From: an uncultured Clostridia bacterium
Lineage (GTDB): Bacteria > Aerophobota > Aerophobia > Aerophobales > AE-B3A
Assembly (NCBI GenBank): GCA_964543295.1
Contig: CAZIXA010000008.1
Location: 4,764 to 68,763 of the forward strand
DNA length: 64,000 nucleotides
Direction: 5' to 3'
Shown here: piece by piece, positions 5,765-58,411 of the stretch
How positions within the stretch are numbered: the stretch's first letter is position 1
Layout of the letters: every line of letters starts with the position of its first letter
Position numbers and translations under genes: made by a program
Notes under the pieces: model-generated
What the model was told of the DNA's origin: nothing
Database searches by the model: none
Seen by the model: only the letters and a program-made list of their open reading frames with translations

Positions 5765-7603
5765 ATGGTTTTAACACTTCGCAAAAAGATTCTCATTGGC
5801 TATGGAATAGCTTTGGCTTTGATGATCATCGTCGTAGTATGGGCGTTGGTCAATCTCCTCACCCTGGGGCAGGCTAGCGACGCTATTCTTGAGGAAAATT
5901 ACAGGAGTATTCTTGCCGCCGAGAATATGGTTGACGCCATTGAGCGACAGGATAGCGCAATACTTTTGGTAATGCTTAACTACGGAGATGAGGGGTTGAG
6001 ACAGTTCCGGGAAAATGAGAGCCAGTTTTTACAGTGGCTTGCCCGGGCAAAAGATAATATTACGATTGAAGGAGAAGATAAGGTCATCGGCGCCATTGAT
6101 TTAGGATACTCATCGTATTTGGTTAACTTCTCCAGACTGAGAGAGCTTTATCGAACTGATCCACAAAAGACAGCTGCATTTTATCACGAGAGCGTGCTTC
6201 CCTCATTTAAGTCAGTGCGTGATACATGTATACGCTTGCGTGAAATTAATCAGGAGACCATGTTTAAAACCAATGTCCATGCGCAGCAGGTTGCTCGAAA
6301 GGCTATTTGGTCCATGGTTATGCTGAGTGTTATCACCGTCGGGGTAGGGTTGGGATTTAGCCTGCTGCTGTCAAATCTTCTTGTAAGGCCACTTCGACAA
6401 ATAATGGAAGCAATAAAAAAGCTCGCCGAAGGTATCTATGACGTGAAAGTTCCGACTACCTCTTCCGATGAACTTGGACGTCTTGGTAGCGAGTTTAACA
6501 CCATGGCCAGAAAACTCAAGATATACCACGATTTAGATATAACACGGATCATAGCGGAAAAGCAGAAGAGTGAGGCTCTCATCCGAAAAATTGACGATGG
6601 CATTATAGTTGTGGATGGGGAGCTAAGAATTACTAACATAAATCAAACAGCAGCTAAAATTTTTGATGTTGAACCTGATAATGTGCAGGGTAGACATTTC
6701 TTAGAAGTAATTAGGAATGAAGAGCTATTCAATTATATAAAGAATGCGGCTGAATCAGGAAAATCTCCTACAATTGGGGAAGGCAAGAATATCTTGACAA
6801 TGCAACACGATGAAACAATGTATCATTTTATGTTTTCAATTACACTTGTTTATACTAAACCTGAAGGTACGTTGGGAGTAGTTCTACTTTTGCGTGACGT
6901 AACCAGGTTAAAAGAGCTTGACCGTCTAAAAAGTGAGTTTGTTATGAGGGCATCTCATGAGTTGCGAACTCCCATGACGAGTATAGGTATGAGCATTGAT
7001 CTTCTTCGGGAAAGTGCTACAAAAAAACTAAACGAGAAGGAACAGCAACTGCTTTCGGCTGCTTATGAGGAGTCAAAGCGACTCAAAGTCCTTGTTAACG
7101 ATTTATTAGAACTTTCCAAAATTGAAGCAGGCAAAATAGACATGGAATTTGGCCGTGTTTCGGTAGGTGCGCTCTTTGAAAAAGCTGTCGCTGTCTTGAA
7201 GGCTCAGGCCGATGAAAAATCAGTCGAGCTTTCTTTTAAACTTGCGGAAACATTACCGAAGGTAAAGGCAGATATCAATAAAATAACCTGGGTGTTAACC
7301 AATCTGGTCTCTAATGCTTTGCGTTATACTGACAGGGGCGGACATATTTGCTTATTCGCTGACTGTGCAGGTTCCCAGGTCCACATTTCGGTGAGCGATG
7401 ACGGAGCTGGTATTCCGTATGAATACCAGTCTAAGATTTTTGATAAGTTTGTCCAGGTCAAAGCTGATAAGGAGGCTGGGAGCAGTGGGCTTGGGCTGGC
7501 TATTTGTAAGGAAATTGTCCATGCCCACGGGGGTACTATTTGGCTGGATTCGACACCCGGTGAAGGAAGTACCTTCACTTTCACGCTCCCGATTGCAGAA
7601 TAG
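5765..7603 (+). CDS. membrane sensor histidine kinase (TM-sensor-TM-HAMP-PAS-HisKA-HATPase_c)
   Basis: 612 aa; HAMP (LVRPLRQIMEAIKKLAEG), H-box FVMRASHELRTPMT, G1/G2 boxes (DDGAGIP, GSSGLGLAI). Confidence 0.8.
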   Translation: MVLTLRKKILIGYGIALALMIIVVVWALVNLLTLGQASDAILEENYRSILAAENMVDAIERQDSAILLVMLNYGDEGLRQFRENESQFLQWLARAKDNITIEGEDKVIGAIDLGYSSYLVNFSRLRELYRTDPQKTAAFYHESVLPSFKSVRDTCIRLREINQETMFKTNVHAQQVARKAIWSMVMLSVITVGVGLGFSLLLSNLLVRPLRQIMEAIKKLAEGIYDVKVPTTSSDELGRLGSEFNTMARKLKIYHDLDITRIIAEKQKSEALIRKIDDGIIVVDGELRITNINQTAAKIFDVEPDNVQGRHFLEVIRNEELFNYIKNAAESGKSPTIGEGKNILTMQHDETMYHFMFSITLVYTKPEGTLGVVLLLRDVTRLKELDRLKSEFVMRASHELRTPMTSIGMSIDLLRESATKKLNEKEQQLLSAAYEESKRLKVLVNDLLELSKIEAGKIDMEFGRVSVGALFEKAVAVLKAQADEKSVELSFKLAETLPKVKADINKITWVLTNLVSNALRYTDRGGHICLFADCAGSQVHISVSDDGAGIPYEYQSKIFDKFVQVKADKEAGSSGLGLAICKEIVHAHGGTIWLDSTPGEGSTFTFTLPIAE

Positions 7604-11198: not shown

Positions 11199-11474
11199 AT
11201 GAACAAAGCAGAATTAGTAGAGGAAGTAGCAGGAAAAGTTGGACTGACAAAGAAGGAAACTAACAATGTAGTGGACGCTATAACGTCAGCCATTACTGAT
11301 TCTCTGGTAAGAAACGAAAAAGTAATATTGGTTGGACTCGGCACATTTGAAGTGAGGAGGCGAAAAACTCGGACAGGAGTTAATCCTCAAACTAGACAAA
11401 GGTTAGTTATTCCTGCGATGAATGTGGCTAGATTCAAAGCGGGAAAAGGATTAAGAGAAAGGGTGGGTAGGTAA
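11199..11474 (+). CDS. hup: HU-family nucleoid-associated DNA-binding protein
   Basis: 91 aa; MNKAELV...GFGTFEV..R..R.GRNP.T signature; SD aacaGGAGGtatt. Confidence 0.85.
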   Translation: MNKAELVEEVAGKVGLTKKETNNVVDAITSAITDSLVRNEKVILVGLGTFEVRRRKTRTGVNPQTRQRLVIPAMNVARFKAGKGLRERVGR

Positions 11475-11515: not shown

Positions 11516-11836
11516 ATGGATATCGATAGACGTAAACTATTAAGAACACTAATTACAGAGGATTTATGGAAAAGGCTATCTCCAGAAGAAGTTAGGCTAT
11601 ATCTTCTTCTTGTAATTTCTATTGATGAGACAAAGGAAATAGGGGAACTAAGAAAACGGGATATTGAGAAATGTCTGGGATATAGTCTAACTGTTGGGCA
11701 ATTAGAAAAAATTACCCATACTTTCCGAGAACTTAACTTAGCTGAGATAGAATATTCTAAGGAGAAATCAGAGGTAAAATTTACACTCGTGGGAAAGGAA
11801 TCCTCAGACGAGAAAAACTATTCAGGTCCCAGCTAA
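11516..11836 (+). CDS. hypothetical small protein (possible wHTH); 3' end encoded out-of-frame by HU-derived DNA
   Basis: 106-aa ORF between intact hup and HU 3' copy 2. Confidence 0.35.
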   Translation: MDIDRRKLLRTLITEDLWKRLSPEEVRLYLLLVISIDETKEIGELRKRDIEKCLGYSLTVGQLEKITHTFRELNLAEIEYSKEKSEVKFTLVGKESSDEKNYSGPS

Positions 11837-11888
11837 AAAGGTTGCTAAGTTTAGACCGGGAAAGGGATTGAGGGAAGCGGTAAGGTAA
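11797..11888 (+). pseudogene. displaced HU 3'-end copy 2 (encodes ..NPQTRKTIQVPAKKVAKFRPGKGLREAVR* in HU frame)
   Basis: ~90 nt homologous to hup 3' end (11385-11474) with stop codon; followed by same tail motif as copy 3. Confidence 0.7.
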
Positions 11889-11950
11889 AAATACCAACGT
11901 TTTTTGTCCATTGAGGATTTTGAGCTTTGAAATCTGCACCTAGTCTATAA

Positions 11951-12001
11951 CAAAAGACGCAAAATTAGCCAAAATAAGAGGCTTTAATCTTTTCAATGAA
12001 G
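11951..12001 (+). repeat. tail motif copy a (caaaagacgcaaaattagccaaaataagaggctttaatcttttcaatgaag)
   Basis: ~50-bp motif repeated at 12378-12422 and 13843-13892. Confidence 0.7.
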
Positions 12002-12095
12002 GAAACCTATTGTTGATAAATCTTGATATTATACAGTTCTGTATAAGATGTTAGGCAGTAAAATAAATTAAACCGCTTGCATACAGGGGGTTATT

Positions 12096-13659: not shown

Positions 13660-13775
13660 ACAAAAGAAAGATAAGAACCGGAAGGAATCCTCAGACACGA
13701 CAAACTACTCAGATCCCAGCAAAAAAAGTCCCCAAATTTAGACCGGGAAAGAGATTGAGGGAGAAGGTGAAGTAA
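13660..13775 (+). pseudogene. displaced HU 3'-end copy 3 (..KIRTGRNPQTRQTTQIPAKKVPKFRPGKRLREKVK*)
   Basis: ~115 nt homologous to hup 3' end incl. stop; followed by tail motif aaaataccaacgtttttt...gacgcaaaatt..aataagagg.tttaatcttttca.tgaa. Confidence 0.7.
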
Positions 13776-13842
13776 AAAATACCAACGTTTTTTATCCACT
13801 TTACATTTGTGGTCTTTGAAGCATGCTTATAGCAAAAGACGC

Positions 13843-13892
13843 AAAATTGGTCATAATAAGAGGTTTTAATCTTTTCAGTGAAAAAAAAAATA
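13843..13892 (+). repeat. tail motif copy c
   Basis: caaaagacgcaaaattggtcataataagaggttttaatcttttcagtgaa. Confidence 0.7.
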
Positions 13893-14189
13893 TCATTGAT
13901 AAGTTTTGACCTCTTCCTTTGGCTTCTCGTTGCTCTAAAAGTACTACTTTATAATGGGACTGAGAGCTATGAACAATCTATCTGGTCAGCTGGGTAATTT
14001 GTCTACTCCCCAAGAGCTCTTCAATACCATGCAATATTTTCACAAGTCCACTTTCTGGAGTTTAGTAGCAATTTTGGGAGGATTCTACTGTACTCTCGGA
14101 CACCATATAATGGAGAAAAAGCAAGGTATAAAACTATTACTCAACCTCAAAATCCTTGAAATAGAGTGTAGAATATTTGGAGGAATTGG

Positions 14190-15054: not shown

Positions 15055-15870
15055 ATGGGAGAAAACTTAGAGGAAGTGAAAATCTTGGAAATAAGTGAGG
15101 GGGAGCTGGAAAGTTTCGTAAAATTGTCTCTTGATAATATCGAAACTGGCTTAACATTAATAGACACACAGGTTAATACATACAGAGGCCCTTTAGATAT
15201 TTTAGCGGTAGATAGCGAAGGATGCTTGGTGGTTATAGAGCTAAAGGTAAAGAAGAACGACGATATGCTGTTCCAAGCTGTGGATTATTGCGATTGGGTT
15301 CAAGGGAATATAGATTCAGTAAGCAGGATGTATAGGAATATTCATCCTAAGGTGGAAGTAAACTACAAGAAGCCTCCTAGAATCATGTTAATTGCTCCCA
15401 GTTTTTCTTCTTCACTTAAGCGAAGAGCGAAGTATTTAGACATTAGTATTGATCTGTATATCTACCGGCTCATTGAGATCGGTGGTAAACGGGGCTTGCT
15501 ATTCGAACAGGTTAATATTCCTCCTCGAAGGTTTCCTTCTCCTTCTCCAAAAACGATTCCAGATCTTACGAATTATCCTCAAAATGTTGAATACAGAAAT
15601 TTAGTTGGGAAATTAGATGAAGCCATAAGACAAATTGGAGGTGATATAGAACCTTATCCCACAACTCAATATATAGGTTACAAAATTAAGGGATCCTACA
15701 TTGCTAGTATTCATCCTAGAAAGACCGCCTGCCCTTATGTAGATATTCTTGGTGAGGAAGGATGGGAATCACTCTCATTAGAGAGCCAAGATGATATTGA
15801 GAAAATTCTTAATTTGGTCAATAAGGCATATAGACTAAAAAAGGGAATGGTAGATACAAATAAGGTTTAA
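15055..15870 (+). CDS. RecB-family/NucS-like PD-(D/E)xK nuclease domain protein
   Basis: 271 aa; GPLDILAVDSEGCLVVIELKVKK (D, D, ExK) followed by QAVDY (QxxxY motif) as in RecB/Cas4/NucS/Shedu-type nuclease folds; extra C-terminal domain of unknown function. Confidence 0.55.
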   Translation: MGENLEEVKILEISEGELESFVKLSLDNIETGLTLIDTQVNTYRGPLDILAVDSEGCLVVIELKVKKNDDMLFQAVDYCDWVQGNIDSVSRMYRNIHPKVEVNYKKPPRIMLIAPSFSSSLKRRAKYLDISIDLYIYRLIEIGGKRGLLFEQVNIPPRRFPSPSPKTIPDLTNYPQNVEYRNLVGKLDEAIRQIGGDIEPYPTTQYIGYKIKGSYIASIHPRKTACPYVDILGEEGWESLSLESQDDIEKILNLVNKAYRLKKGMVDTNKV

Positions 15871-15955
15871 TTTCTAAGATAGATATGTTTAGGTTAGTAA
15901 GGTATAGAATTATCACTCAACCTCTGAACTCTTGAATAAGAAATAGGAGTAAAAA

Positions 15956-16672
15956 ATGAATATGGATTATAAAGAACTTATAAAAGGGGCTCAATTATTT
16001 GAAAATGATCCAGTGGCTCATTTTTATGACGAATATATGGAGGAGAAGAACTATCAAGAATGGGAAGATCCTCATAGTCTCTCTGATAATGAAGTGAGAA
16101 AACTTTTTGAGTTTATTATAAGTTGGGATCCTCATTTTGGGCAAGAGCGTGATAGAATTGCTGAATTTAGGCACGCATACCAAAATATTTACCCTCTTCT
16201 CAGAAAACTCGAGAGAGAAACAATCTACAATATAGCTTTTGAGGAGAGGGTGAGTAAAGGCAGCTTAATAACACATTCACAAGCCATTTTTCTTATTTTT
16301 GAGGAAATAGCACATTGCTTTAGAAGGTATGAATCAACAGATACTTCAAAAATCATTCATACACTTAATCCCCACCTATTTGTTATGTGGGATAACGCAA
16401 TTTGCTACCATATATTAGGTATTGAGTTGATAAAAAGGGCTTCGGGACATGATTACGCCTATAGATTTATGCCTTTAATGCAAAAAACTGTTAAAAAGAT
16501 TATAAGAAGTTATACGGAGAAGCATTGCTGTAATCAGGAAGAAGCAGTAAAGAGAATATCTGAATGTGGAAACAATAAGACTTTAGCTAAGTTGATAGAT
16601 GAGTATAATTGGGTTTATAAAAATAACCCGGAGAAATTGAAAAGAGCCCACTTCGGCAAAGAGAAAAACTGA
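15956..16672 (+). CDS. hypothetical protein, partner of downstream SIR2-like gene (18-bp gap)
   Basis: 238 aa, helical, no motif I recognise. Confidence 0.5.
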   Translation: MNMDYKELIKGAQLFENDPVAHFYDEYMEEKNYQEWEDPHSLSDNEVRKLFEFIISWDPHFGQERDRIAEFRHAYQNIYPLLRKLERETIYNIAFEERVSKGSLITHSQAIFLIFEEIAHCFRRYESTDTSKIIHTLNPHLFVMWDNAICYHILGIELIKRASGHDYAYRFMPLMQKTVKKIIRSYTEKHCCNQEEAVKRISECGNNKTLAKLIDEYNWVYKNNPEKLKRAHFGKEKN

Positions 16673-16689
16673 AACAAGAAACTACGAAC

Positions 16690-17718
16690 ATGTCTGAAGA
16701 AAAGACTGTATACTTCTTAGGTGCGGGGGCCTCAAATGCTTCTGATTTTACCCTCCCAATAACGGATGGGTTTTTTCGGAAAGACGATCTTAGTCTGGAA
16801 AATTTTTCTGAGCTTCGCAAATTCATTGAGAGCACCTTTCATGGGGTTCTTTCCGAAAACCTCAATTTGGAGGATGTGATTAGTCACCTGGAGCTAAGTG
16901 TAGACAGATTTGGCTCGTTCGGGAAACGTCCTGATGCCTATCTTTATGATGCCAGAGAGCAGTTCAACCAATACGTTAGGATGCGATTGGATTATGAGTC
17001 TGTGGAGGGTAGACTCTGGTGTCCAAAATTCAAAGAGATTTTCCAAAGTCTGAACCCGAACGATACTATTATCACTCTAAATTATGATCTCATCACGGAA
17101 AATACGCTAAATGCTATTTCACACGAAAAAGGGGTGAAGGAAAATCATACGTTGTACACAAAAATGGTTCAACTGCTTAGTCTGGACATCTACTGCAGTG
17201 GCATATTAGGAATCGACGTTCCCGAAAGGAAATTGGAATCTGGTTGGTATCTGAAACTGCATGGTTCAACTAATTGGTATTATTGTTCCAACCCGCACTG
17301 TCTGGGTCACCAGATTATGAACGTACTCGCCATGCCTGTGGGCGGTCCTCCCCGTAATTGCAATTCTTGCGGTTCTCCTCTTGAGATGGCGATTGTCCCT
17401 CCCACGATGAATAAGGCCTTCGGAAAGTATCCCAAATTGGGAATCATATGGAGTCTAGCTCGCCAGGAAATTGCTTCATCTACCTCCATTGTATTCATAG
17501 GTGTTTCCTTTAGGCCTTCAGATTACTATCTGAGTTGGCTAGTCAAATCATCATTCTTAGGGGCAAAGAGTAAAGACAAATCAGTCGTAGTCGTTGACAA
17601 GTGTGAATCAGTCGCCCACCGAATAGCCAAGATGATTGGTGTGAAACCAGTTTATTGCGATAATATTGACTCATATATCTCGTCAAGAAAGGAAAATAAA
17701 AAGGAGATGAACGGCTGA
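16690..17718 (+). CDS. SIR2-like (SIR2_2 family) NAD-binding domain protein with inserted zinc ribbon
   Basis: YFLGAGAS (GAGxS), ITLNYD (catalytic Asn motif), LKLHGS (catalytic His), CxxHC...CNSC zinc module, IVFIGVSF; same order/spacing as ThsA/DSR-type defensive SIR2 domains. Confidence 0.6.
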   Translation: MSEEKTVYFLGAGASNASDFTLPITDGFFRKDDLSLENFSELRKFIESTFHGVLSENLNLEDVISHLELSVDRFGSFGKRPDAYLYDAREQFNQYVRMRLDYESVEGRLWCPKFKEIFQSLNPNDTIITLNYDLITENTLNAISHEKGVKENHTLYTKMVQLLSLDIYCSGILGIDVPERKLESGWYLKLHGSTNWYYCSNPHCLGHQIMNVLAMPVGGPPRNCNSCGSPLEMAIVPPTMNKAFGKYPKLGIIWSLARQEIASSTSIVFIGVSFRPSDYYLSWLVKSSFLGAKSKDKSVVVVDKCESVAHRIAKMIGVKPVYCDNIDSYISSRKENKKEMNG

Positions 17719-17885
17719 AAGCTAACGACTAAAGGTAAGAGGAGAGAATTATCTGCTAAAGAGAGGCGTAATAGACTAATTATAAAGCTCTGGTTCGAGG
17801 CGCAATTGGAATCGGGCTAATTAAGATTTTATTCTGATTAACAAGAAAAAACACGCACATAGAGGCTCATAGAGCCACTTTCTTA

Positions 17886-17988
17886 AGGAAAGGTAACCTG
17901 TAACCTGGGTAAATTTAAGCTCCTCTATCAAGAGATTTTTTTTAAGCCAGTTGCGAGAATAGAGGGATTTTTAGGAAAGGGAGAGGAG
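17886..17988 (+). promoter_or_regulatory. conserved ~105-nt leader, copy 1 (upstream of 84-aa ORF)
   Basis: aligns with 18321-18422: aagg.aacct.ta..ggtaaa.ttaa...tatcaagaga.ttt...aagc.agttg.g.ata.gggat..taggaaagggag + SD. Confidence 0.45.
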
Positions 17989-18320: not shown

Positions 18321-18422
18321 AGGGTAAGGCAACCTATATGGCCTAGGTAAAATTAAAGTGTTTATATCAAGAGAATTTTATCAAGCTAGTTGTGGTATAG
18401 GGGGATCATAGGTAAAGGAGGT
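18321..18422 (+). promoter_or_regulatory. conserved ~105-nt leader, copy 2 (upstream of 194-aa ORF)
   Basis: see copy 1. Confidence 0.45.
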
Positions 18423-21517: not shown

Positions 21518-24500
21518 CTAACCGTTGCTGCTCAATGAGGCAACAGCAGGGGTAATTCCGGACCTGCGGTAGACCTCATCAATCTTTTCTTGAAGTTCAA
21601 TCGTGAGCTGAATCGCTTTTTCCACCTTCATATAATGGTCAATCTCATCCAGACAAAGCTTCCGGCCTCTTCTATCCTTCAGGTATTTCTCCATTACCTG
21701 ATAAGCTCCGATTCGGTATTCCCACACTTCTTTCGAGATACCCTCAAAACACTGACCTTTGTTGATATAGACTCTTTGGCTCCCTTCATCATATTGCACC
21801 TTTTCCATTTTATTGGAGCCACTTACTGGGTAGCCAATCTCGGTTTGGGAAAGAGAAAAGTGTTTAAATAAATGAAGTTCAACAAGCTCTTTACCAAGAT
21901 TGCTCAAAGTCCTGAAAACTTCATAATCTTTCGGTAAGGGAATCCTAGGAAAGTCTATTTTGAGGAATTCCTGGTAACGCTTTCGGTAGGTGGAGGAGTA
22001 AAGCACGGCATAGATGTAATAAAAAATCTTTTCTGGAGCCGGTTCCATTTCATGAGATTCTTTTACCGCCTGCAAGAATTTATCGGTGAAATTTGGAATT
22101 TTCGGTTCTCCAGACAATTCCTGGGAAAGAGCCAGATCTTCACGTCCATGCTGGTAAAGGTAAAGAGGGAAGCAGTAACAATTATCCCTTGAGGAGATAA
22201 GAGTTTTGTCTGTTATGTGGGAGGTAACCAGAATGTGCCGCCAAATAGGATCTCTTAGCCTCTTCGTAAGATTTATTGCTAAATTACTCCTTTCTATCAT
22301 ATGTCTCATCAGTTTAAACCTATCTCTTTCAACAAGTGCCCAATGATAACAGATGTATCGCCAATCAAAGGGCCTGTAGTCATAGAGATAGATTAAATCC
22401 TCCCATTTTTTACCTTTGACTTTTTCCCGTATCTTCGAAACCATCCAATCCTTGGTGTCCTTCAATTTCAAGTCCATCTTGATTAAATCACTCGTCAGTG
22501 ACCCTGTGAATACCTTCATTCTTTGTACTATCTCATCGCTTGTAAATCCTACTACAAGATGATCTCGTGCGGTGGTTACACCGAAAGACCACTGTCTGAA
22601 GATCTCCGTTATCTTCCAGAATTTCTCATACTCCTCTTGCAGAGCAAAATCTTTAGGAACAAAGAAGTAGTAAGGAGCGACAGGCTTAAGTTCTTGCCAC
22701 TTAGTTGTCTCGGTGTCGTTTTCCGAGAGGTATCCGTATTTTTTACTTCTCAGACCCCAAAGGTCCGCATAGTAGACTTTCTTTTCTTTCTCTGGTCTCT
22801 CAAGTTTTACATAGAGGGCAATAGTAACCCCCTGCTGGATGTCAAATACATTCTCGTCTTTGCCGCCTTCGGGGGTCAGCTCACTTATTCTTGAGGAACC
22901 ATGCAGATTTAAAAGATAAATCTCATTAAAGGTCTCTAAAAGTTTACTCCGCATCCCCCGATGAATTACCCCTGAAAGATAGGAGTTATTGGTGATAAAC
23001 CCCAAGATTCCTTTACCAGCTTGCTCTATTTTCCATTGACCAAAGCGGATAAACTTTATGTAATCATCAGAAAGAGGCTGGATATTTCGCTCCTTCCTCA
23101 CGTCTTCCTTGTAAGTATCCATCAAGTCTTCAATGAAATCCGACTTGTTTTCTGAGCTCACTGAATAAGGAGGATTGCCCAAAACAACCAAAATGGGAAT
23201 TTCTTCCTTTATTTTTTTAGCTTCACGCCCTTCTTTTGTAAGGTCAATGAGGAAACTTATCTGTCTGGGTTCTTTCATCTCCAGAGTATTGGTGAGGTAA
23301 AACTTGAATCGTTCACCTTCCTTGAACCTATAACCCATCTCTTCCAAGACCATCGATACCTTGAAATGACCTACTGTATAGGGAGCCATAAGGATTTCAA
23401 AAGCATGAAAATGGGGCAAGATATGCTCTTCTATATAAGATTTAACAAGTCCTCCTTTATTTCTTTCTTCTAGCTCCCCCTGCACTTGCTTGATTGCCTG
23501 GACGAGAAAGGTCAAAGTGCCTGCTGCCGGATCAAGAAGGGTTACATCTCTGGTGGCAAGTCCTTCGACCTTTGAAAATTTTTGCTTTAAGAGTTTGTGA
23601 ATTGACCTCGTGATATAGGAAACCACTGGCAGAGGGGTATAATAAACTCCTAATCTTTGTCTTTCTTGAGGATTATAAGTAGCAAGGAAGGTTTCGTAAA
23701 AGTGAATTACCGGGTCCTCATCCCACCGAGTCGTCTTGAACTCCTTAAGAATTGAGGAAATATCGGCCTTCTCAAGCACTTGACTTATGTCATCAACAAT
23801 CCAGGATAAGGATTCTGGGAAATGTGGTCCAACAAAGGAATAAAAAATTTCCTTGAGTAAGGGTAAACTCTGAGGGATGGATTCCCAGGCAACTTCCCTT
23901 TTGAAGCCATTTTCAACCCTCATTCTGGCGGCAAAAAGTCCATAGCTCATAGTCTGGGCGTAAAGGTCTGCGAATCGCTCTTCACTCAAGGTCTCTATAA
24001 GTTCTTCTTGAAAGGCTTTGTAAAATCTCGTCACCTCTTCATTCTTACCTGAAAGCTCTTCCTGTAAAATATGTTCAAGAAATCGGGTTCTCTTGGCCAG
24101 TTCAATGGAAAGGTCAGAGGAGGTCTTTATCTCAGGTGCAGAAAAAGAGAAGAATTTTTCAAGAAGCTGGAAGAATAGATCTAACTTCTCAGGAAGGGGA
24201 GGATGCTTCAATCTCTGCAAAGTAAATTGCCGACCCACCTCCACCTGATCAATCAGACTGCCTTTCCGGTATAACCTGAACTCCAAGAAATTGGTCAAAA
24301 TGAGGTTAGGAAGTGAGCCCAGATACCTCCTGAGCTGCTCGGAGCCTTCAACTTCTCTGAGGCTGGCATCAGGTGGTTTTGCTTCAATGTATCCAACGAT
24401 TTCGCCATTTTTACCGATGCGAAAGTCAGGGATTCCTACTTCTGTTCTTCTAGGTAAAACAATAACGTTTGCCCTTGCTTGTATTTGAAAAAATCGGGAA

Positions 24501-24634
24501 AGTTCTTCAATGAATCCCTTAAGTGCAGGATAGAAGCTTTCTTCCCTGAAATTGCCACCTGTATAAATCTCATGGATTTCCCTAATGTAGCTGCTAAGAG
24601 TTTTTTCGAATTTGTCTCTTTGCCTTTTCTTCAT
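21518..24634 (-). CDS. MmeI-family Type IIL (IIG) single-chain restriction-modification enzyme
   Basis: 1038 aa; N-terminal PD-ExK (GIPDF...GYIEAKP), gamma-class N6-adenine MTase motif I LLDPAAGTLTFL and motif IV NPPY, C-terminal TRD-sized region. Confidence 0.7.
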   Translation of the reverse strand: MKKRQRDKFEKTLSSYIREIHEIYTGGNFREESFYPALKGFIEELSRFFQIQARANVIVLPRRTEVGIPDFRIGKNGEIVGYIEAKPPDASLREVEGSEQLRRYLGSLPNLILTNFLEFRLYRKGSLIDQVEVGRQFTLQRLKHPPLPEKLDLFFQLLEKFFSFSAPEIKTSSDLSIELAKRTRFLEHILQEELSGKNEEVTRFYKAFQEELIETLSEERFADLYAQTMSYGLFAARMRVENGFKREVAWESIPQSLPLLKEIFYSFVGPHFPESLSWIVDDISQVLEKADISSILKEFKTTRWDEDPVIHFYETFLATYNPQERQRLGVYYTPLPVVSYITRSIHKLLKQKFSKVEGLATRDVTLLDPAAGTLTFLVQAIKQVQGELEERNKGGLVKSYIEEHILPHFHAFEILMAPYTVGHFKVSMVLEEMGYRFKEGERFKFYLTNTLEMKEPRQISFLIDLTKEGREAKKIKEEIPILVVLGNPPYSVSSENKSDFIEDLMDTYKEDVRKERNIQPLSDDYIKFIRFGQWKIEQAGKGILGFITNNSYLSGVIHRGMRSKLLETFNEIYLLNLHGSSRISELTPEGGKDENVFDIQQGVTIALYVKLERPEKEKKVYYADLWGLRSKKYGYLSENDTETTKWQELKPVAPYYFFVPKDFALQEEYEKFWKITEIFRQWSFGVTTARDHLVVGFTSDEIVQRMKVFTGSLTSDLIKMDLKLKDTKDWMVSKIREKVKGKKWEDLIYLYDYRPFDWRYICYHWALVERDRFKLMRHMIERSNLAINLTKRLRDPIWRHILVTSHITDKTLISSRDNCYCFPLYLYQHGREDLALSQELSGEPKIPNFTDKFLQAVKESHEMEPAPEKIFYYIYAVLYSSTYRKRYQEFLKIDFPRIPLPKDYEVFRTLSNLGKELVELHLFKHFSLSQTEIGYPVSGSNKMEKVQYDEGSQRVYINKGQCFEGISKEVWEYRIGAYQVMEKYLKDRRGRKLCLDEIDHYMKVEKAIQLTIELQEKIDEVYRRSGITPAVASLSSNG

Positions 24635-25960: not shown

Positions 25961-26386
25961 TTGCTCCTTTATCAAGACCTGGAAGCTAATAAAATGGGCA
26001 AAAAGATAAAAAGTGATCAAAAAAATATCTTGGTAGTTGATGACGATATGAGTGCACGAACTGTATTTTCAAGCGCCTCAAAAAAAGAGAGCTATCGAGT
26101 GACTGCGGTAAAAAATGGCTATGAGGCGATAAAGGCTATAGATGAAGAAAGTTTTGATCTTGCCGTGATAGATCTTAGAATGCCAGGGCTGGATGGAATT
26201 GAAGTTTTAGAGAAGATAAAGAATAAAAGGCCTCAAACCCGAGTCATTATTTATACGGGATATGGTTCGATAACGACCGCAGTAGAGGCCATGAGGAAAG
26301 GAGCCGTCGACGATCTTATTAAGCCATTTTCTCCCGACCAGCCCAAGGCAGGCATTAAAAAAGCATTAGAGAACTACGGAGACTAA
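25961..26386 (+). CDS. stand-alone receiver (REC) domain protein; true start probably MGKK at ~25994
   Basis: ILVVDDD, DLRMPGLDG, K in IKP; no output domain. Confidence 0.7.
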   Translation: MLLYQDLEANKMGKKIKSDQKNILVVDDDMSARTVFSSASKKESYRVTAVKNGYEAIKAIDEESFDLAVIDLRMPGLDGIEVLEKIKNKRPQTRVIIYTGYGSITTAVEAMRKGAVDDLIKPFSPDQPKAGIKKALENYGD

Positions 26387-32428: not shown

Positions 32429-33367
32429 ATGAAGATGTTTGTTACTGGAGGGGCGGGATTTATAGGCTCCCATGTTGTAGATGCGTTGATACAGAGAGGT
32501 AACAAAGTTATTGTTTATGACAATCTTAGTTCTGGCAAGAAAGACTTTATGAGTCAGCATTTTGGCAGAAGAGAATTTAAATTTATCCAGGCGGATCTTT
32601 CAGACATAGAAAAACTAAAAAATGTAATGAGAGGTTGTGAATGCATTTTTCACTTTGCTTCCAATCCTGATATAGCCAGAAGCATGGTAGAAACAGATCT
32701 AGACTTACGAGAAGGTACTATCCTGACCTACAATGTCCTTGAGGCAATGAGAGTTAATAATGTGAGAAAGATACTCTATTCTTCTGGAAGTGGAGTTTAT
32801 GGAGATGTTGGGGCTGTAGCTATTCCAGAGGATTACGGCCCCTTACTTCCCATATCTATGTATGGGGCAAGTAAACTAGCATGTGAGGGAATGGTAAGTG
32901 CTTTTTGTCATATGTTCAATATGCAGGCGTGGATATTTAGATTTGCCAATGTCGTAGGAGCTCGGCAAACTCATGGCGTTTGCCTTGATTTTATAAGAAA
33001 ACTAAAGAAAAATCCCCAACAATTAGAAATCCTCGGTGACGGTACTCAGTCCAAATCCTATATCTATGTGAGAGATTGCCTGGAGGCGATGTTGTTCATT
33101 ATGCAGGAAGCTAATGAAAAAGTTAATATTTATAACGTTGCCACTGATGATTATCTAGATGTAACCTATATAGCTAATATAGTGATTGAGGAAATGGGCT
33201 TGAACAGTGTGCAATATAAATATACCGGCAGTGATAGAGGTTGGAAGGGAGATGTTCCCCTGGTAAGGTTTAATTTGAATAAGGTCCATAAATTAGGCTG
33301 GAAAGCTAGATATACATCTTCTGAGGCGGTACGTCTTTCTGTGAAAGAGATATTAAGATTGGATTAA
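32429..33367 (+). CDS. NAD-dependent sugar-nucleotide epimerase/dehydratase (SDR)
   Basis: GGAGFIGSH Rossmann, YGASK (YxxxK). Confidence 0.75.
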   Translation: MKMFVTGGAGFIGSHVVDALIQRGNKVIVYDNLSSGKKDFMSQHFGRREFKFIQADLSDIEKLKNVMRGCECIFHFASNPDIARSMVETDLDLREGTILTYNVLEAMRVNNVRKILYSSGSGVYGDVGAVAIPEDYGPLLPISMYGASKLACEGMVSAFCHMFNMQAWIFRFANVVGARQTHGVCLDFIRKLKKNPQQLEILGDGTQSKSYIYVRDCLEAMLFIMQEANEKVNIYNVATDDYLDVTYIANIVIEEMGLNSVQYKYTGSDRGWKGDVPLVRFNLNKVHKLGWKARYTSSEAVRLSVKEILRLD

Positions 33368-55291: not shown

Positions 55292-58200
55292 CTAAAGATG
55301 GTCCCCTTTTATTTTATCACACACACTTTTCATATAATAACCAACTACAACTACTATTATAATTACTAAAATTGTTATCCATAATCCTAATCTACTTGGA
55401 GCTATAGGTATTTCTTCTTCCGGAGTTACCACTTCTTCCTCTTCTTCAGGTACTTCTTCTTCAGCTACTCTTTCAATTCTTTTAAATGTCAAATCTCCCT
55501 TACCATAACTAATCCCATCTAACGTAATTTCTAAATCATTCACCCCATCATTATCTAAATCAACTTCTTTACTTTCGTCTACCTTCACTGTAACCTCCAT
55601 TGGATCTGAACTTATTTCTAATACTACATAATCTTTACCAACCTCTTTTACCTTAACTGAATGAGCTACAGTATCAATTGTAAATGTTAAAGTACTATCT
55701 TTAGCCATTAACTTACTTGCTCCGTAATCTGTTAGCTCTCCTAAATCAATTGTTTTTCCAGTTCTAACAATTTCCTTAGCAATAGTTGTAGTCGTAAAAT
55801 AACTTGGTCTTTTATGTACCATAAATGTTTTTGAAACTGAAGCTGAATTTCCAGCATCGTCTGTTGCTGAGTAACTTACTGTGTATGTTCCTATTTCATC
55901 TGTGTCTGTAAAACTTTCTCCACACAAAGCTGATACAGATGAACCTTGTGGTTTTGTAACAGTTAAACTAGTAGAAAGTGAGCCATCATAATTATCACTA
56001 GAAGAACAAGAAATTACAGTTGAACGTCCTGTATATATTGATGTATCTGATAATAATAAAGAAACTGTTGGAGCTGTATTATCTACTTGAGCTTCAAATG
56101 TTATAGTAGGAAAACCTTCATCATAAGTAAAATTTATATAACCAGAAGCATTAGCTTGAAAAGCCTTCCAAAGAATTCCATTTTTATTTACTACAACTTT
56201 ATCTCCTGATGAAAAATTACCTATTGTATGATTTACTGTTGTCGACGAATTTGAGGCAGATTCGTTCCATTTTTTGTAGATGGTCGTGAAGTTTGAGACT
56301 GTTACGTTGATTGAGCTTGAGGATGGATAAATAGACATAATTTTTATTAAATTTATTGTATATGCTCCATGTTCTAAGTTAAGTGACAGCTTATTGGTAA
56401 CATTACCTGAACTATCAACAATATGCGACATCGAAGAGTTTTGAGACGTATTTTGATAATAATATACCCCGTAATCGAATGAATTAAGTTGGAATTTATT
56501 TGTTTTGTATCTTACAATACCATCATCAAAATATGATTGTGGTATTGTTACGTTGGCATTTATTGTAACTGTCTCTGCGTTAGGATTGTAATATGACGAA
56601 TCTATTTTGGTTTCGGCTCGTATTAATCTCGGATTGCTATTAGGTGTAGTTATGAATGTCGTATTTTTATTTTCCTCTGCAACAAACCATGTATAATTAT
56701 TATTATTGTCGTCGGTTGTATGGATATAGTAGATACTTTCATTACTTTCAGGATACACTAATCCCTTAACTCGGATCATTGCAGTTTCATTGACTTGAAT
56801 AGTCACCATACTTGCGTTATTATTAAATATTATTGTATTCACATCGTATTGTTGGGGGTACCTTTGATTGTAAATTTCGGTTTCATACGCAAAACGGTAA
56901 CCCTTTTCATAGAGGTCTTTTACAATATTGTTGCGAAAATTTCTATTTTGATTATCATTCCCGTGTGTTGATCCTAACAAGGGATAACCTGCATAAAGAT
57001 AAACTTCATACATCGCATCATATGCGTAAAGAGTGTAGCTGTCGCTAGCATCAAAATCAAAGGCTCTTGGTATGATTGCTGTGTTATTATACATGTTATA
57101 AAAGAGGTAATCCTTCGGGAAAGGGTCTCTAAAATTCTCATAGATTAGAAATCCTTTATCAGACCATATATGCATTGTGGTCTCACTTGATGACCAACCA
57201 GGTGTTGAATATCCAGGAAATAAACCATGTGTTATTACATGATTCCATGCTTCTGTTATATTACCGGCTAATGTCCCTTGATCATACATATCAATTTCGC
57301 TAAGATGGTCATACCCATGTGATTCTATTTCGATATTTCCTCCATATATGTATCCTAGACTATTCCATCTCGAACTGATATCTATTGGTGAAAGTATCCC
57401 TTGGCCAGTAGGATCGCCAGAAGGAACATCGTAAGTGAATTTATTTTCTGTGTATTGTGATACATTATTCATAAAATCACCTGTTAAATCTGTGAGATAA
57501 TCAAACCCACTTTGGCTATGCATGTGACAGGGCATTTGTGCTATGGGCGGCATCGGGACGATCATTACATTAATATAATTACTCAAAAATTTCCACATGC
57601 CATAACCAGATGCCCTGAAATACCAATTATAAGCACCAAATGCCGTGAAATCACTAAGAATCATTAACATTAGAACATCTGGATCTCCATTCATGTGTCC
57701 TATTGTCATCGATGGATATTTGTCTGAAGAATTTGTTTTGTTTATCACCCATACAAAAATACCATCATCGAAATCATCTGGAAAAGATTCATTATAATCC
57801 AACTTTAAATAAGTTAAAGCGGTTGCTGGCCTGTAACCAGTATCGTTTATATTCCGCTCAGAGACCGTTATATTTGTTTGATAGTCAGTACCTAAATTTT
57901 TATAGCTTGCTGCATAAGGGCCTCCAAACGCTGTATTTCTCCTCCAATTAATGTATTCAAATGAAGCGGTAGGACCAGTAATTACAGCTATTTTATTTGC
58001 TTTAGCGACATCATATATAGCTGAAAAGTCCATACCTCCATCTAGCCAAGCCTGCCATGCTACACCACCAGAAAATTGACTATCTACTATGATTACCTTA
58101 TAGTCAGCAAGTTTTGTATAATTGAAATTTGGGTCGCTAACATTATAACAGTCGACAGGAAGTGTTTGTAATACGCCCCTTTGCCAATCAGCATCTGTTC

Positions 58201-58411
58201 TATATAAATATTCAGCATTGTTGTAGTATAGTACCGCTATTTCATGACCCTTTGTGTTCTCAGAAATGTAAGGTGTAATTGGAGCACCAGCATTTCCGAC
58301 TCCACCAAATACAGCAAGGGATAAGAGAACTAAGGTGATGAAACCAACTCTTTCAATATTTTTCCAGAATTTGGACGGTATTCTAGTTTCCCCCAGGGAC
58401 TGTTCTGCCAT
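55292..58411 (-). CDS. large secreted cell-surface protein with acidic linker and C-terminal TM anchor; candidate S-layer/glycoprotein
   Basis: 1039 aa; N-terminal signal peptide; dozens of N-x-S/T sequons and Thr/Ser-rich stretches; ..EEEVPEEEEEVVTPEEE.. linker then LWITILVIIIVVVVGYY anchor; last ~12 codons lie in IS-associated repeat. Confidence 0.55.
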   Translation of the reverse strand: MAEQSLGETRIPSKFWKNIERVGFITLVLLSLAVFGGVGNAGAPITPYISENTKGHEIAVLYYNNAEYLYRTDADWQRGVLQTLPVDCYNVSDPNFNYTKLADYKVIIVDSQFSGGVAWQAWLDGGMDFSAIYDVAKANKIAVITGPTASFEYINWRRNTAFGGPYAASYKNLGTDYQTNITVSERNINDTGYRPATALTYLKLDYNESFPDDFDDGIFVWVINKTNSSDKYPSMTIGHMNGDPDVLMLMILSDFTAFGAYNWYFRASGYGMWKFLSNYINVMIVPMPPIAQMPCHMHSQSGFDYLTDLTGDFMNNVSQYTENKFTYDVPSGDPTGQGILSPIDISSRWNSLGYIYGGNIEIESHGYDHLSEIDMYDQGTLAGNITEAWNHVITHGLFPGYSTPGWSSSETTMHIWSDKGFLIYENFRDPFPKDYLFYNMYNNTAIIPRAFDFDASDSYTLYAYDAMYEVYLYAGYPLLGSTHGNDNQNRNFRNNIVKDLYEKGYRFAYETEIYNQRYPQQYDVNTIIFNNNASMVTIQVNETAMIRVKGLVYPESNESIYYIHTTDDNNNNYTWFVAEENKNTTFITTPNSNPRLIRAETKIDSSYYNPNAETVTINANVTIPQSYFDDGIVRYKTNKFQLNSFDYGVYYYQNTSQNSSMSHIVDSSGNVTNKLSLNLEHGAYTINLIKIMSIYPSSSSINVTVSNFTTIYKKWNESASNSSTTVNHTIGNFSSGDKVVVNKNGILWKAFQANASGYINFTYDEGFPTITFEAQVDNTAPTVSLLLSDTSIYTGRSTVISCSSSDNYDGSLSTSLTVTKPQGSSVSALCGESFTDTDEIGTYTVSYSATDDAGNSASVSKTFMVHKRPSYFTTTTIAKEIVRTGKTIDLGELTDYGASKLMAKDSTLTFTIDTVAHSVKVKEVGKDYVVLEISSDPMEVTVKVDESKEVDLDNDGVNDLEITLDGISYGKGDLTFKRIERVAEEEVPEEEEEVVTPEEEIPIAPSRLGLWITILVIIIVVVVGYYMKSVCDKIKGDHL

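Follow-up and report, generated by a model that had tools for sequence, protein, structure and literature searches.

Among the described SIR2 systems, SIR2-HerA (PDB 8sub, 8uae, 8wld, 8j4u, and 8w9l) contains a SIR2-only polypeptide of ~340–400 aa. DSR1/DSR2, Thoeris ThsA, SPARSA SIR2-APAZ, and Avs5 carry the SIR2 catalytic core together with a sensor, which is a large C-terminal domain, SLOG plus the TIR protein ThsB, pAgo, or a STAND NTPase. Classical sirtuins/CobB (Sir2Tm, Sir2Af, and Hst2) combine a Rossmann fold with a Cys4 zinc module that follows the catalytic His; in Sir2Tm, the two residues are H116 and C124, and a start 8 residues after the catalytic His is presumably the canonical sirtuin position. 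In addition, Getz et al. described Dag1–Dag17 as defence-associated DNA glycosylases, which are stand-alone HhH-superfamily proteins on mobile cassettes, unlinkable to known glycosylases by sequence; the active-site residues of Dag1 are K118, D132, D184, and W188 (bioRxiv 10.1101/2025.10.29.685425).

In this study, we analysed a 64,000-nt stretch of DNA (the window) from an uncultured Clostridia bacterium, in which the gene of a 238-aa protein (the partner) directly precedes the gene of a 342-aa SIR2-like protein. An earlier note, made from the sequence alone, had proposed that the pair is a two-gene NAD-depleting defence module. The features of the region are as follows.

11199..11474, + strand: complete HU gene, left edge of the variable island, with housekeeping genes upstream
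11795..11891, + strand: HU 3'-end fragment copy 2, which translates as RNPQTRKTIQVPAKKVAKFRPGKGLREAVR and a stop, followed by D2 repeat 11949-12026
13682..13778, + strand: HU 3'-end fragment copy 3, which translates as RNPQTRQTTQIPAKKVPKFRPGKRLREKVK and a stop, followed by D2 repeat 13831-13908
15055..15870, + strand: NucS_C/DUF5655-like nuclease-fold gene, 271 aa (Pfam, PADLOC)
15896..15955, + strand: partner leader with short repeat modules (D3, D4, D10; sequence)
15956..16672, + strand: 238-aa partner gene (ORF call)
16647..16689, + strand: fusion junction (blastn boundaries, nucleotide alignment, sequence)
16690..17718, + strand: 342-aa minimal stand-alone SIR2 domain protein (ORF call, alignment, PDB profile matches, AF2, Foldseek)
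17810..17971, + strand: conserved intergenic element closing the unit (blastn, repeat D5, sequence)
21518..24634, - strand: Type ISP/IIL restriction-modification enzyme, 1038 aa (N6_Mtase, MmeI_Mtase, Eco57I, and Type_ISP_C domains)

Both ORFs named in the earlier note (238 and 342 aa) lie on the + strand at these coordinates, while the gap between them measures 17 nt (16673-16689) rather than the 18 bp it had given. The genes share a strand with no terminator between them, and they are probably co-transcribed across this gap. The ribosome-binding site of the partner, AGGAG, lies 8 nt before the ATG within the leader, whose repeat modules recur upstream of the 14190 and 15055 ORFs. The island described in the note, with its HU 3' fragments and 1038-aa Type ISP/IIL enzyme, was also found. 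The enzyme gene lies near the right edge, and other defence-like genes occur beside restriction-modification; the product of 15055..15870 matches the PADLOC candidate systems PDC-S18 and PDC-S11. No integrase was found in a scan that covered part of the island ORFs, an Rfam search of 11-26 kb of the window returned no known RNA, and the window contains no tRNA genes. A 1039-aa ORF (55292-58411), considered as a paralogue of the restriction-modification enzyme, proved unrelated on comparison.

The 342-aa protein contains YFLGAGAS (residues 8-15), ITLNYD (128-133), LKLHGS (188-193), CNSC (224-227), and IVFIGVSF (266-273). All the SIR2_2 motifs quoted in the note are thereby accounted for, whereas the Pfam SIR2_2 model itself scores only 16.4 bits (E=0.0099), under its 24.5-bit cutoff. 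Likewise, the four cysteines of the proposed zinc ribbon are in place, CNSC included, but the first pair is C199-x4-C204 (CSNPHC) and not CxxHC. In a 47-sequence alignment of the family, N131, Y132, D133, H191, G192, S193, C199, C204, C224, and C227 are the same in every sequence, and G11-S15 reach at least 90% conservation; because of this family-wide conservation, the motifs are more than chance. The family, with members of 303–426 aa, has the catalytic residues N131/D133/H191 and the GAGAS NAD loop that define the SIR2 superfamily. Additionally, the Cys4 zinc ribbon (C199, C204, C224, and C227) begins 8 residues past the catalytic His, the family alignment places an FFR-like stretch after the GAGAS loop, and an insertion of ~45 residues separates NYD from the catalytic His. 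The best library match is PADLOC Aga_SIR2 (E=3.7e-6), a partial match over residues 110-198; the PADLOC check that the note had named thus gives a partial result for SIR2 and no match for the partner. Pfam SIR2 (PF02146) and the NCBIfam models, those of sirtuins/CobB included, give no match at E <= 0.1, so that the housekeeping sirtuin/CobB, which the note had held would count against it, was not what the searches returned.

The fold check likewise led to SIR2 structures. A sequence-profile search of the PDB gave the SIR2 of SIR2-HerA as the best match (E=5e-4 to 2e-3), in which the NYD and LHGS motifs align, and the AlphaFold2 model (pLDDT 89.4) was best matched by Foldseek to 8sub/8wld, the same protein (E=7e-9, TM 0.55-0.62), with DSR2, SPARSA, and AVAST5 structures also significant. 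The spread of the family is patchy (Planctomycetota, Omnitrophota, Aerophobetes, Methylococcaceae, and Hodarchaeales), and the presence of the gene differs between close relatives at one hotspot. Collectively, the alignment and the predicted structure support the assignment of the 342-aa protein as a true, though divergent, SIR2 of the type associated with defence (SIR2_2/SIR2-HerA-like).

Compared with the described systems, the 342-aa protein resembles the SIR2 of SIR2-HerA in size and in being a SIR2-only polypeptide, and the catalytic cores are homologous, with an identity of only 14-16%. In contrast, the Cys4 zinc ribbon belongs to the family of the 342-aa protein, which has no HerA-type ATPase/helicase next door. 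No HerA/ATPase domain was found among the island neighbours, and none recurs beside SIR2 family members in related loci; membership of the SIR2-HerA system was rejected, the core matching and the adjoining HerA gene being absent. The sensor-bearing effectors share the catalytic core, whereas the 342-aa protein is a SIR2 domain only and has no sensor neighbour. Thoeris was rejected, as the SIR2 fold fills all 342 aa and Pfam and PADLOC find no SLOG, TIR, or Ths in the protein or its neighbours. DSR1/DSR2, which would need ~1000 aa with a large C-terminal sensor, was rejected on size, as was a SPARSA/pAgo-associated SIR2, which would be a SIR2-APAZ protein encoded beside a short pAgo; Pfam and PADLOC detect neither APAZ nor pAgo in the neighbourhood.

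For the partner, the earlier note could place no motif, and Pfam, NCBIfam, and PADLOC agree in giving no match to the 238-aa protein. The partner family comprises 1,740 cluster representatives (50% identity clusters), all annotated "hypothetical", and nearly all are single-domain, stand-alone proteins of 210–240 aa; the long members bear a TRAM nucleic-acid-binding domain. Pfam DUF6308 (PF19827) matches 11 of 58 family members at E <= 0.01 (best E=1.2e-6), and two of the relatives, P0171 and P0169, match it weakly, P0171 also matching HHH_5 weakly. The window partner itself gives no match and does not reach the Pfam gathering threshold of 27.3 bits. Because relatives match and the window protein does not, the family is taken as a divergent DUF6308 relative, not a curated member. 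No papers on DUF6308 or the OGG fold came up in the literature searched, and profile searches with the family against PDB chains, NCBIfam, PADLOC, and plasmids returned nothing. The conserved residues are W57, S131, K132, H135, P139, W145, D146, Y167, F171, D215, E216, N218, and an aromatic at 219. In particular, D146 and D215 are invariant, conservation is at least 90% at K132, W145, and N218, and only W, Y, or F occurs at position 219 in the family alignment.

The AF2 model of the partner is all-alpha and confident (pLDDT 93.9), with a helix at 127-137, a loop, and a helix at 147-154. By two methods, the top structural matches are Ogg2-type/HhH-GPD glycosylases, and these matches are weak; Foldseek gives no significant match in the PDB. 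The fold check on the partner thus produced a confident model, but the nearest structures are not significant. In the Ogg2-type glycosylases Tm1821 (3n0u) and MjaOgg (3knt), a Lys precedes an Asp that opens the next helix, as in the partner. Together, these features point weakly to a predicted HhH-GPD/Ogg2-like helical fold for the family. Furthermore, compared by description only, the partner is similar to the Dag proteins, which have ~180-270 aa, a fold near Ogg/AGOG, and single-gene cassettes in mobile/variable loci. By residue spacing alone, K118/D132 (K+14) and D184/W188 (D+4) of Dag1 mirror K132/D146 and D215/aromatic-219 of the partner, while the spacing between the two pairs is 52 residues in Dag1 and 69 in the partner. 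The Dag-type trait of a stand-alone gene in variable, defence-rich loci is also found in the family, whose contexts include AbiV/BREX, restriction-modification/NERD/PIN, and the present island, with some among housekeeping genes. In contrast to Dag, the hosts of the partner belong to uncultivated lineages from sediment, and its locus is not an integron but an HU-adjacent hotspot.

To compare neighbourhoods, we used a SIR2-family set of 159 loci, 128 of which have at least 750 nt upstream. The partner HMM matches only four of the 159 loci (L080, L103, L117, and L089). L080 and L103 are copies of the window with 94-98% nucleotide identity, and in L089 the partner copy is truncated and lies 2 kb from SIR2. 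A partner-family gene stands upstream of SIR2 in only 2 of the 128 loci, L080, which is of the same lineage, and L117; the two-gene module proposed in the note does not hold up on these counts. L117 is an independent adjacency with a 161-nt gap, a 37%-identical SIR2, and a partner from another subfamily (29% identity over 99 aa). No SIR2 accompanies the members of the window partner's own subfamily that are 36-54% identical. Because the subfamily in L117 differs and the relatives in the window subfamily lack SIR2, the adjacencies in L117 and the window are regarded as independent events. In another locus (L172), a different SIR2_2 gene lies 1.3 kb from a partner relative.

The close relatives of each gene occur apart. 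The partner is missing from SIR2 loci at 74% (L173), 67% (L081), 62% (L082), and 60% identity (L083), and in L082 the SIR2 gene comes directly after an HU gene. Conversely, SIR2 is missing downstream of the partner at 93% (L174), 88% (L169), and 63% identity (L170), and a window-type SIR2 adjoins the partner in none of the eight independent contexts of the family whose downstream sequence could be read. Other partner-family genes without it are flanked by AbiV and BREX or by a HinfI restriction-modification system and NERD/PIN genes, stand by themselves among housekeeping genes, or lie within a nuo operon. Clustering of the ORFs within 3.5 kb over the 159 loci gave only small lineage-restricted groups and no conserved SIR2-family neighbour. 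A hidden antitoxin or regulator was considered and rejected: the 70-100-aa ORFs directly upstream of many SIR2 genes form no family. A recurring 92-aa ORF downstream of SIR2 genes is a GIY-YIG selfish nuclease. Viral contigs contain almost no members of either family. Lack of co-conservation with SIR2 was the outcome that the earlier note had set against its own proposal, and it is what the neighbourhoods show; it also speaks against the partner as a sensor or regulator of SIR2.

The DNA at the junction was compared with the single-gene loci. L169, whose partner has 93% DNA identity, aligns by blastn to window 15941-16647 and resumes only at 17810-17962, skipping the whole SIR2 gene, while L173 and L081 align only to window 16675-17736. 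Homology to the partner-only loci stops at ~16647, where the stop codon of these loci (…GCTTACTAA) gives way to a read-through of 8 extra codons. At 16675 starts the conserved SIR2 leader CAAGAAACTACGAAC, and the window lacks the hairpin-containing spacer that precedes SIR2 in SIR2-only loci. Moreover, the element at 17810..17971 follows the SIR2 gene in the window and in L082 and directly follows the partner gene in L169; it carries a terminator-like hairpin (17864-17876), and positions 18350-18392 repeat part of the element (D5). These alignments show that, against partner-only loci, the SIR2 gene stands as a discrete insertion or deletion, and that its tight junction with the partner is a lineage-specific fusion.

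We favour, at a probability of roughly 60%, the reading that the partner and SIR2 are two autonomous single-gene modules, a bare SIR2 NAD+ consumer and a Dag-like glycosylase. They lie in a hypervariable island that starts right after the HU gene and forms an array of mostly single-gene + strand units with short repeat modules between them. In the lineage of the window, a local rearrangement fused the partner 3' end to the SIR2 leader, which left the genes 17 nt apart and probably co-transcribed. The SIR2 protein most likely uses up NAD+ as an NADase or ADP-ribosyltransferase, as a self-contained effector with no dedicated partner protein. By analogy with the stand-alone Dag proteins, the most likely role of the partner is to flip a non-canonical base out of invading nucleic acid and excise it. 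Each gene would be expected to function without the other.

The identity of each protein could be read differently. The 342-aa protein might be a non-defence, sirtuin-type deacylase/ADP-ribosyltransferase with a housekeeping or regulatory role, its island location being incidental. Consistent with this, its Cys4 module stands at what is presumably the sirtuin position and is accompanied by the FFR-like stretch, classical sirtuins nearly equal the defence SIR2s in Foldseek (1m2j, E=3e-7), and several neighbours of family genes elsewhere are housekeeping; the family gene is sometimes solitary among housekeeping genes (L176), as in a Phycisphaerales MAG where it sits between truD and a sulfatase gene, so that its defence role is putative. 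However, classical sirtuins differ in the NYD–His insertion, the patchy spread, and the variable-island location, the sirtuin/CobB models do not match, and the best sequence and fold matches are the SIR2-HerA and pAgo-associated SIR2s. Other neighbours include HEPN_Apea, a Type II methyltransferase, a trypsin-Sel1 protein, and an HmaC-like AAA+ ATPase, and the gene comes and goes between close relatives at one hotspot; we consider a sirtuin role improbable. It is unlikely, on the other hand, that the partner is not a DNA glycosylase and instead works on free nucleotides or nucleosides by cleaving their N-glycosidic bond, for which QNG1/DUF2419 (queuosine salvage), with an HhH-GPD-like fold, provides a model, or acts as a non-catalytic nucleic-acid-binding/regulatory protein.

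As for the pair, a true two-component system might exist in the lineage of the window, in which a DUF6308-like sensor (e.g., of modified or damaged DNA) activates or regulates the SIR2 NADase. The shared strand, the 17-nt gap without a terminator, and the independent adjacency in L117 of a distant partner-superfamily gene and SIR2 are in line with such a system, as is L080, where the NucS-like gene, the partner, and SIR2 travel as a three-gene block between different flanks at 90-96% protein identity. Looser proximity is seen in L089 and L172, and the L117 adjacency together with the proximity in L172 exceeds the uniform-chance prediction, yet independent adjacencies are what genes sharing defence islands would give. 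The nearest independent relatives of either gene lack the other, SIR2 is a clean insertion/deletion relative to L169, the secondary fusion changed the partner C-terminus and dropped the usual SIR2 upstream spacer, and the partner family of ~1,740 representatives is nearly all stand-alone. Such a system is thus quite unlikely. It is very improbable that the repeated, independent juxtaposition of a DUF6308/Ogg-fold protein and a minimal zinc-ribbon SIR2 reflects functional coupling, in which modified or damaged DNA of an invader is recognised by a base-excision-type sensor, with NAD+ depletion as its downstream response or its backup; if true, it would be a new, modular sensor-effector logic for SIR2 defence, with parts also able to work alone.

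With two autonomous modules as the preferred reading, a "new two-gene SIR2 system" is unsupported and gives way to two leads, each testable separately. One is a minimal zinc-ribbon SIR2 family of uncultivated bacteria and some archaeal genome bins, with no sensor domain and no conserved partner, and such a bare SIR2 raises the question of how it is kept off and how it is switched on. The HU-adjacent hotspot, which exchanges single-gene units, could be mined for more defence genes. The other lead is the partner: if it is a glycosylase, Pfam DUF6308 would gain its first functional hypothesis, and the newly recognised class of stand-alone antiviral glycosylases would reach well beyond Vibrio integrons.

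The partner gene and the SIR2 gene, which the earlier note had read as a novel NAD-depleting two-gene module, are both present and co-oriented in the window. The close, operon-like spacing reported for them also holds, but the gap measures 17 nt (16673–16689), not 18. The features of the window considered here are as follows.

11199–11474: complete HU gene, left edge of the variable island
11795–11891 and 13682–13778: HU 3'-end fragments that translate to HU C-termini, each followed by a 78-nt D2 repeat
11949, 12370 and 13831: the 78-nt D2 repeat
15055–15870, plus strand: NucS_C/DUF5655 protein, 271 aa, with a NucS_C nuclease-like N-terminus followed by a DUF5655 region
15956–16672, plus strand: partner gene, 238 aa, ORF read from sequence
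16690–17718, plus strand: SIR2 gene, 342 aa, ORF read from sequence
17911–17953 and 18350–18392: 43-nt repeat (AAATTTAAGCTCCTCTATCAAGAGATTTTTTTTAAGCCAGTTG), about 40–80 nt upstream of two successive start codons
19606–20553, plus strand: EEP-family (endonuclease/exonuclease/phosphatase) protein, 315 aa, whose N-terminus appears to hold a signal or membrane segment

We retrieved 159 loci with SIR2-family relatives from genomes and metagenomes (L-numbers) and scanned the ORFs of all six frames against HMMs of the two families; in 128 of these loci, the sequence reaches 750 nt or more upstream of SIR2. Among the 159 loci, a partner-family gene adjoins SIR2 only in L080, L103, and L117, and L080 and L103 are copies of the window (94–98% nucleotide identity). 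L089 carries a truncated partner copy 2 kb downstream of SIR2. The nearest independent relatives of SIR2 lack a partner (L173 at 74% identity, L081 at 67%, L082 at 62%, L083 at 60%), and in L082 the SIR2 gene lies directly 3' of a complete HU gene. Similarly, no SIR2 ORF occurs in the sequence downstream of the close partner relatives in L174 (93% identity; 299 nt), L169 (88%; 460 nt), and L170 (63%; 170 nt). Distant partner members are flanked by HEPN_AbiV and a BREX operon (L160) or by a HinfI restriction-modification system and NERD/PIN genes (L162), or are solitary amid K+-transport and redox genes (L165). In L168, a partner-family gene (6001–6681) sits within the nuo (NADH dehydrogenase) operon, between nuoI-like and nuoJ-like genes; this site, odd for an accessory gene, suggests the insertion of a small mobile unit. 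Collectively, the co-conservation check named by the earlier note, run from both gene sides, contradicts a conserved two-gene system and leaves the proposed module unsupported: the partner is not co-conserved with SIR2, their adjacency is lineage-specific, and SIR2 has no conserved partner.

Based on DNA alignments, L169 matches the window at 15941–16647, omits 16648–17809, and picks up again at 17810–17962, while the alignment of L173 and L081 is confined to 16675–17736. These boundaries indicate that, compared with the partner-only loci, the SIR2 gene was inserted or deleted as a discrete unit. In those loci, the partner gene ends with …AAAGCTTACTAA; from the window counterpart, …GCCCACT, the partner frame continues for eight more codons and is followed by the conserved SIR2 leader CAAGAAACTACGAACATG. 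A hairpin-containing spacer lies 5' of this leader in SIR2-only loci and is absent from the window. The genes lie so close together because two units fused secondarily in this lineage, and the pairing is an accident of island dynamics.

A true functional coupling of the two genes appears improbable. The NucS-like/partner/SIR2 block is kept between unrelated flanks in L080, as coupling would lead one to expect, and L172 carries a different SIR2_2 gene at a distance of 1.3 kb from a relative of the partner. An independent partner–SIR2 adjacency also exists in L117 (161-nt gap), but its partner-like protein comes from another subfamily (29% identical across 99 residues), while window-subfamily members at 36–54% identity occur without SIR2. 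For these two reasons, the adjacencies arose separately, as expected of genes drawn from a common pool of defence-island cargo.

No conserved partner of the SIR2 family emerged when all neighbours were clustered, when the genes directly beside SIR2 were inspected in 54 core loci, or when small flanking ORFs were clustered. The sole recurrent small ORF flanking SIR2 genes is a GIY-YIG selfish nuclease, which is probably a selfish element targeting the 3' flank of the SIR2 gene.

L100 9009–9287, L104 1831–2109 and L107 1965–2243: conserved 92-aa GIY-YIG nuclease ORF, in each case 12–15 nt downstream of SIR2

Annotated SIR2 neighbours are defence-like (HEPN_Apea, Type II methyltransferase, trypsin-Sel1 protein, HmaC-like AAA+ ATPase, DUF3800, DUF5677) or housekeeping (aminotransferase, beta-lactamase-fold protein, TruD with sulfatase). 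On a Phycisphaerales MAG contig (L006/L176; 913,645 bp), two SIR2-family paralogues, P0060 and P0062, are present; the one examined is solitary between truD and a sulfatase gene and so not in an obvious defence island. Separately, in L172 (1838–6852), the partner relative (54% identical) adjoins a large serine recombinase and has an HU C-terminal fragment as N-terminal extension; the SIR2_2 gene there (385 aa) is on the opposite strand and scores only 50 bits to the window SIR2 family.

The variable-island context described previously holds, including the Type ISP/IIL restriction-modification enzyme and the HU 3' fragments. Housekeeping genes (MFS transporter, histidine kinase, response regulator, TrkA, TrkH) extend up to the HU gene; from there, a series made up largely of single-gene units, with few exceptions on the plus strand, runs to about 25 kb, and housekeeping-type genes start again at 25961. 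Other short repeat modules sit upstream of individual island genes, and contigs L082, L083, L089, L160, and L172 have intergenic modules in common with the window, with different genes between them. The HU 3' end thus looks like a recombination hotspot accreting single-gene units. The 43-nt repeat is conserved in L082, L089, and L169 and may serve as a common promoter or operator, or else as a site for recombination within the cassette array. The 271-aa NucS_C/DUF5655 gene is itself a candidate for a role in defence; in L080 it accompanies the partner/SIR2 block, and its product matches two single-gene candidate systems of PADLOC, PDC-S18 (E=3.6e-15) and PDC-S11 (E=5e-14). No integrase was found among the island ORFs scanned, no tRNA genes in the window, and no Rfam families in its 11–26 kb region. 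A search of 2.9 million viral contigs gave one match each for the SIR2 and partner families. Further right, at 32429–54000 (plus strand), lies a long run of closely packed ORFs with a G+C of 0.32–0.37, markedly below the left part of the window.

The SIR2 motifs quoted for the 342-aa ORF are all present. Its top library match is the PADLOC model of pAgo-associated SIR2 (E=3.7e-6); Pfam SIR2_2 scores under the model threshold (E=0.0099), and NCBIfam gives no match. Homology search returned 145 or more related protein clusters, every one of them either unnamed or "hypothetical". When 47 sequences were aligned, N131, Y132, D133, H191, G192, S193, C199, C204, C224, and C227 proved invariant, and conservation of the GAGAS loop was at least 90%; moreover, the NYD and LHGS of the family profile align with the same motifs of the SIR2-HerA SIR2 subunit. 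The protein is a SIR2 with a conserved catalytic core and zinc ribbon. The proposed AlphaFold/Foldseek check gave a model (pLDDT 89.4) best matched by SIR2-HerA SIR2 subunit structures (E=7e-9; TM 0.55–0.62), with classical sirtuins, DSR2, SPARSA, and AVAST5 next. The SIR2 assignment is correct, and the protein is not a CobB-type sirtuin. No sensor domain was found in the 342 residues, and the defining architectures of SIR2-HerA, Thoeris, DSR, SPARSA, and CobB are all lacking. The protein is best described as a sensor-less zinc-ribbon SIR2 outside every named system.

The partner has no match in Pfam, NCBIfam, PADLOC, or PDB sequences, in agreement with the earlier view that it carries no placeable motif. 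Exhaustive profile search places it in a family of 1,740 cluster representatives at E ≤ 1e-3 (893 at ≤ 1e-10), almost all stand-alone proteins of 210–240 aa, and every member with a source name is "hypothetical". Across 58 diverse members, D146, I149, Y167, F171, and D215 are invariant; S131, K132, H135, P139, M144, W145, K212, E216, and N218 reach at least 90% conservation; and position 219 invariably holds W, Y, or F. The partner is one of a large family of stand-alone proteins in which acidic, basic, and aromatic residues are conserved. Eleven of the 58 match Pfam DUF6308 (best E=1.2e-6), which has no assigned function and is absent from the literature searched. The relative P0171 joins an N-terminal DUF6884 to a DUF6308-like region also weakly matching HHH_5, and in three long members (P0347, P0353, P0220) a TRAM nucleic-acid-binding domain (OB-fold, RNA/ssDNA-binding) follows the core. 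These three belong to a double-length subgroup, with P0346, P0364, and P0380 among its other 500–550-aa members, that has further unassigned sequence in addition to core and TRAM. In the partner model, K132 lies within helix 127–137 and D146 caps the following helix, which we take to be the HhH-GPD arrangement of EndoIII and Ogg2. The partner, likewise no member of a named system, is best described as a putative DUF6308-related Ogg-fold protein.

A 2025 preprint on the Dag defence glycosylases (10.1101/2025.10.29.685425) describes stand-alone HhH-superfamily proteins that sequence search does not link to known glycosylases, encoded as single-gene cassettes, with structures clustering near Ogg/AGOG; they destroy phage DNA with 7-deazaguanines, and the Dag1 active site comprises K118, D132, D184, and W188. 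Compared by these published residue positions, the Dag1 pairwise spacings (K+14, D+4) equal those of partner K132/D146 and D215/aromatic-219. This spacing offers a possible lead, and the partner is not placeable in a Dag family as yet.

In summary, the original reading holds for a defence-type SIR2 and for the island context but not for a two-gene system. As a self-contained effector, SIR2 probably consumes NAD+ as an NADase or ADP-ribosyltransferase, and the partner would most likely act as a Dag-like, base-flipping N-glycosidase on modified invader nucleic acid. In the window lineage, the two would be co-transcribed, one transcript providing two protective layers with no mechanistic dependence between them. 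Both families are uncharacterised and testable, and the proposal for the partner gives a large "dark" protein family its first hypothesis of function.
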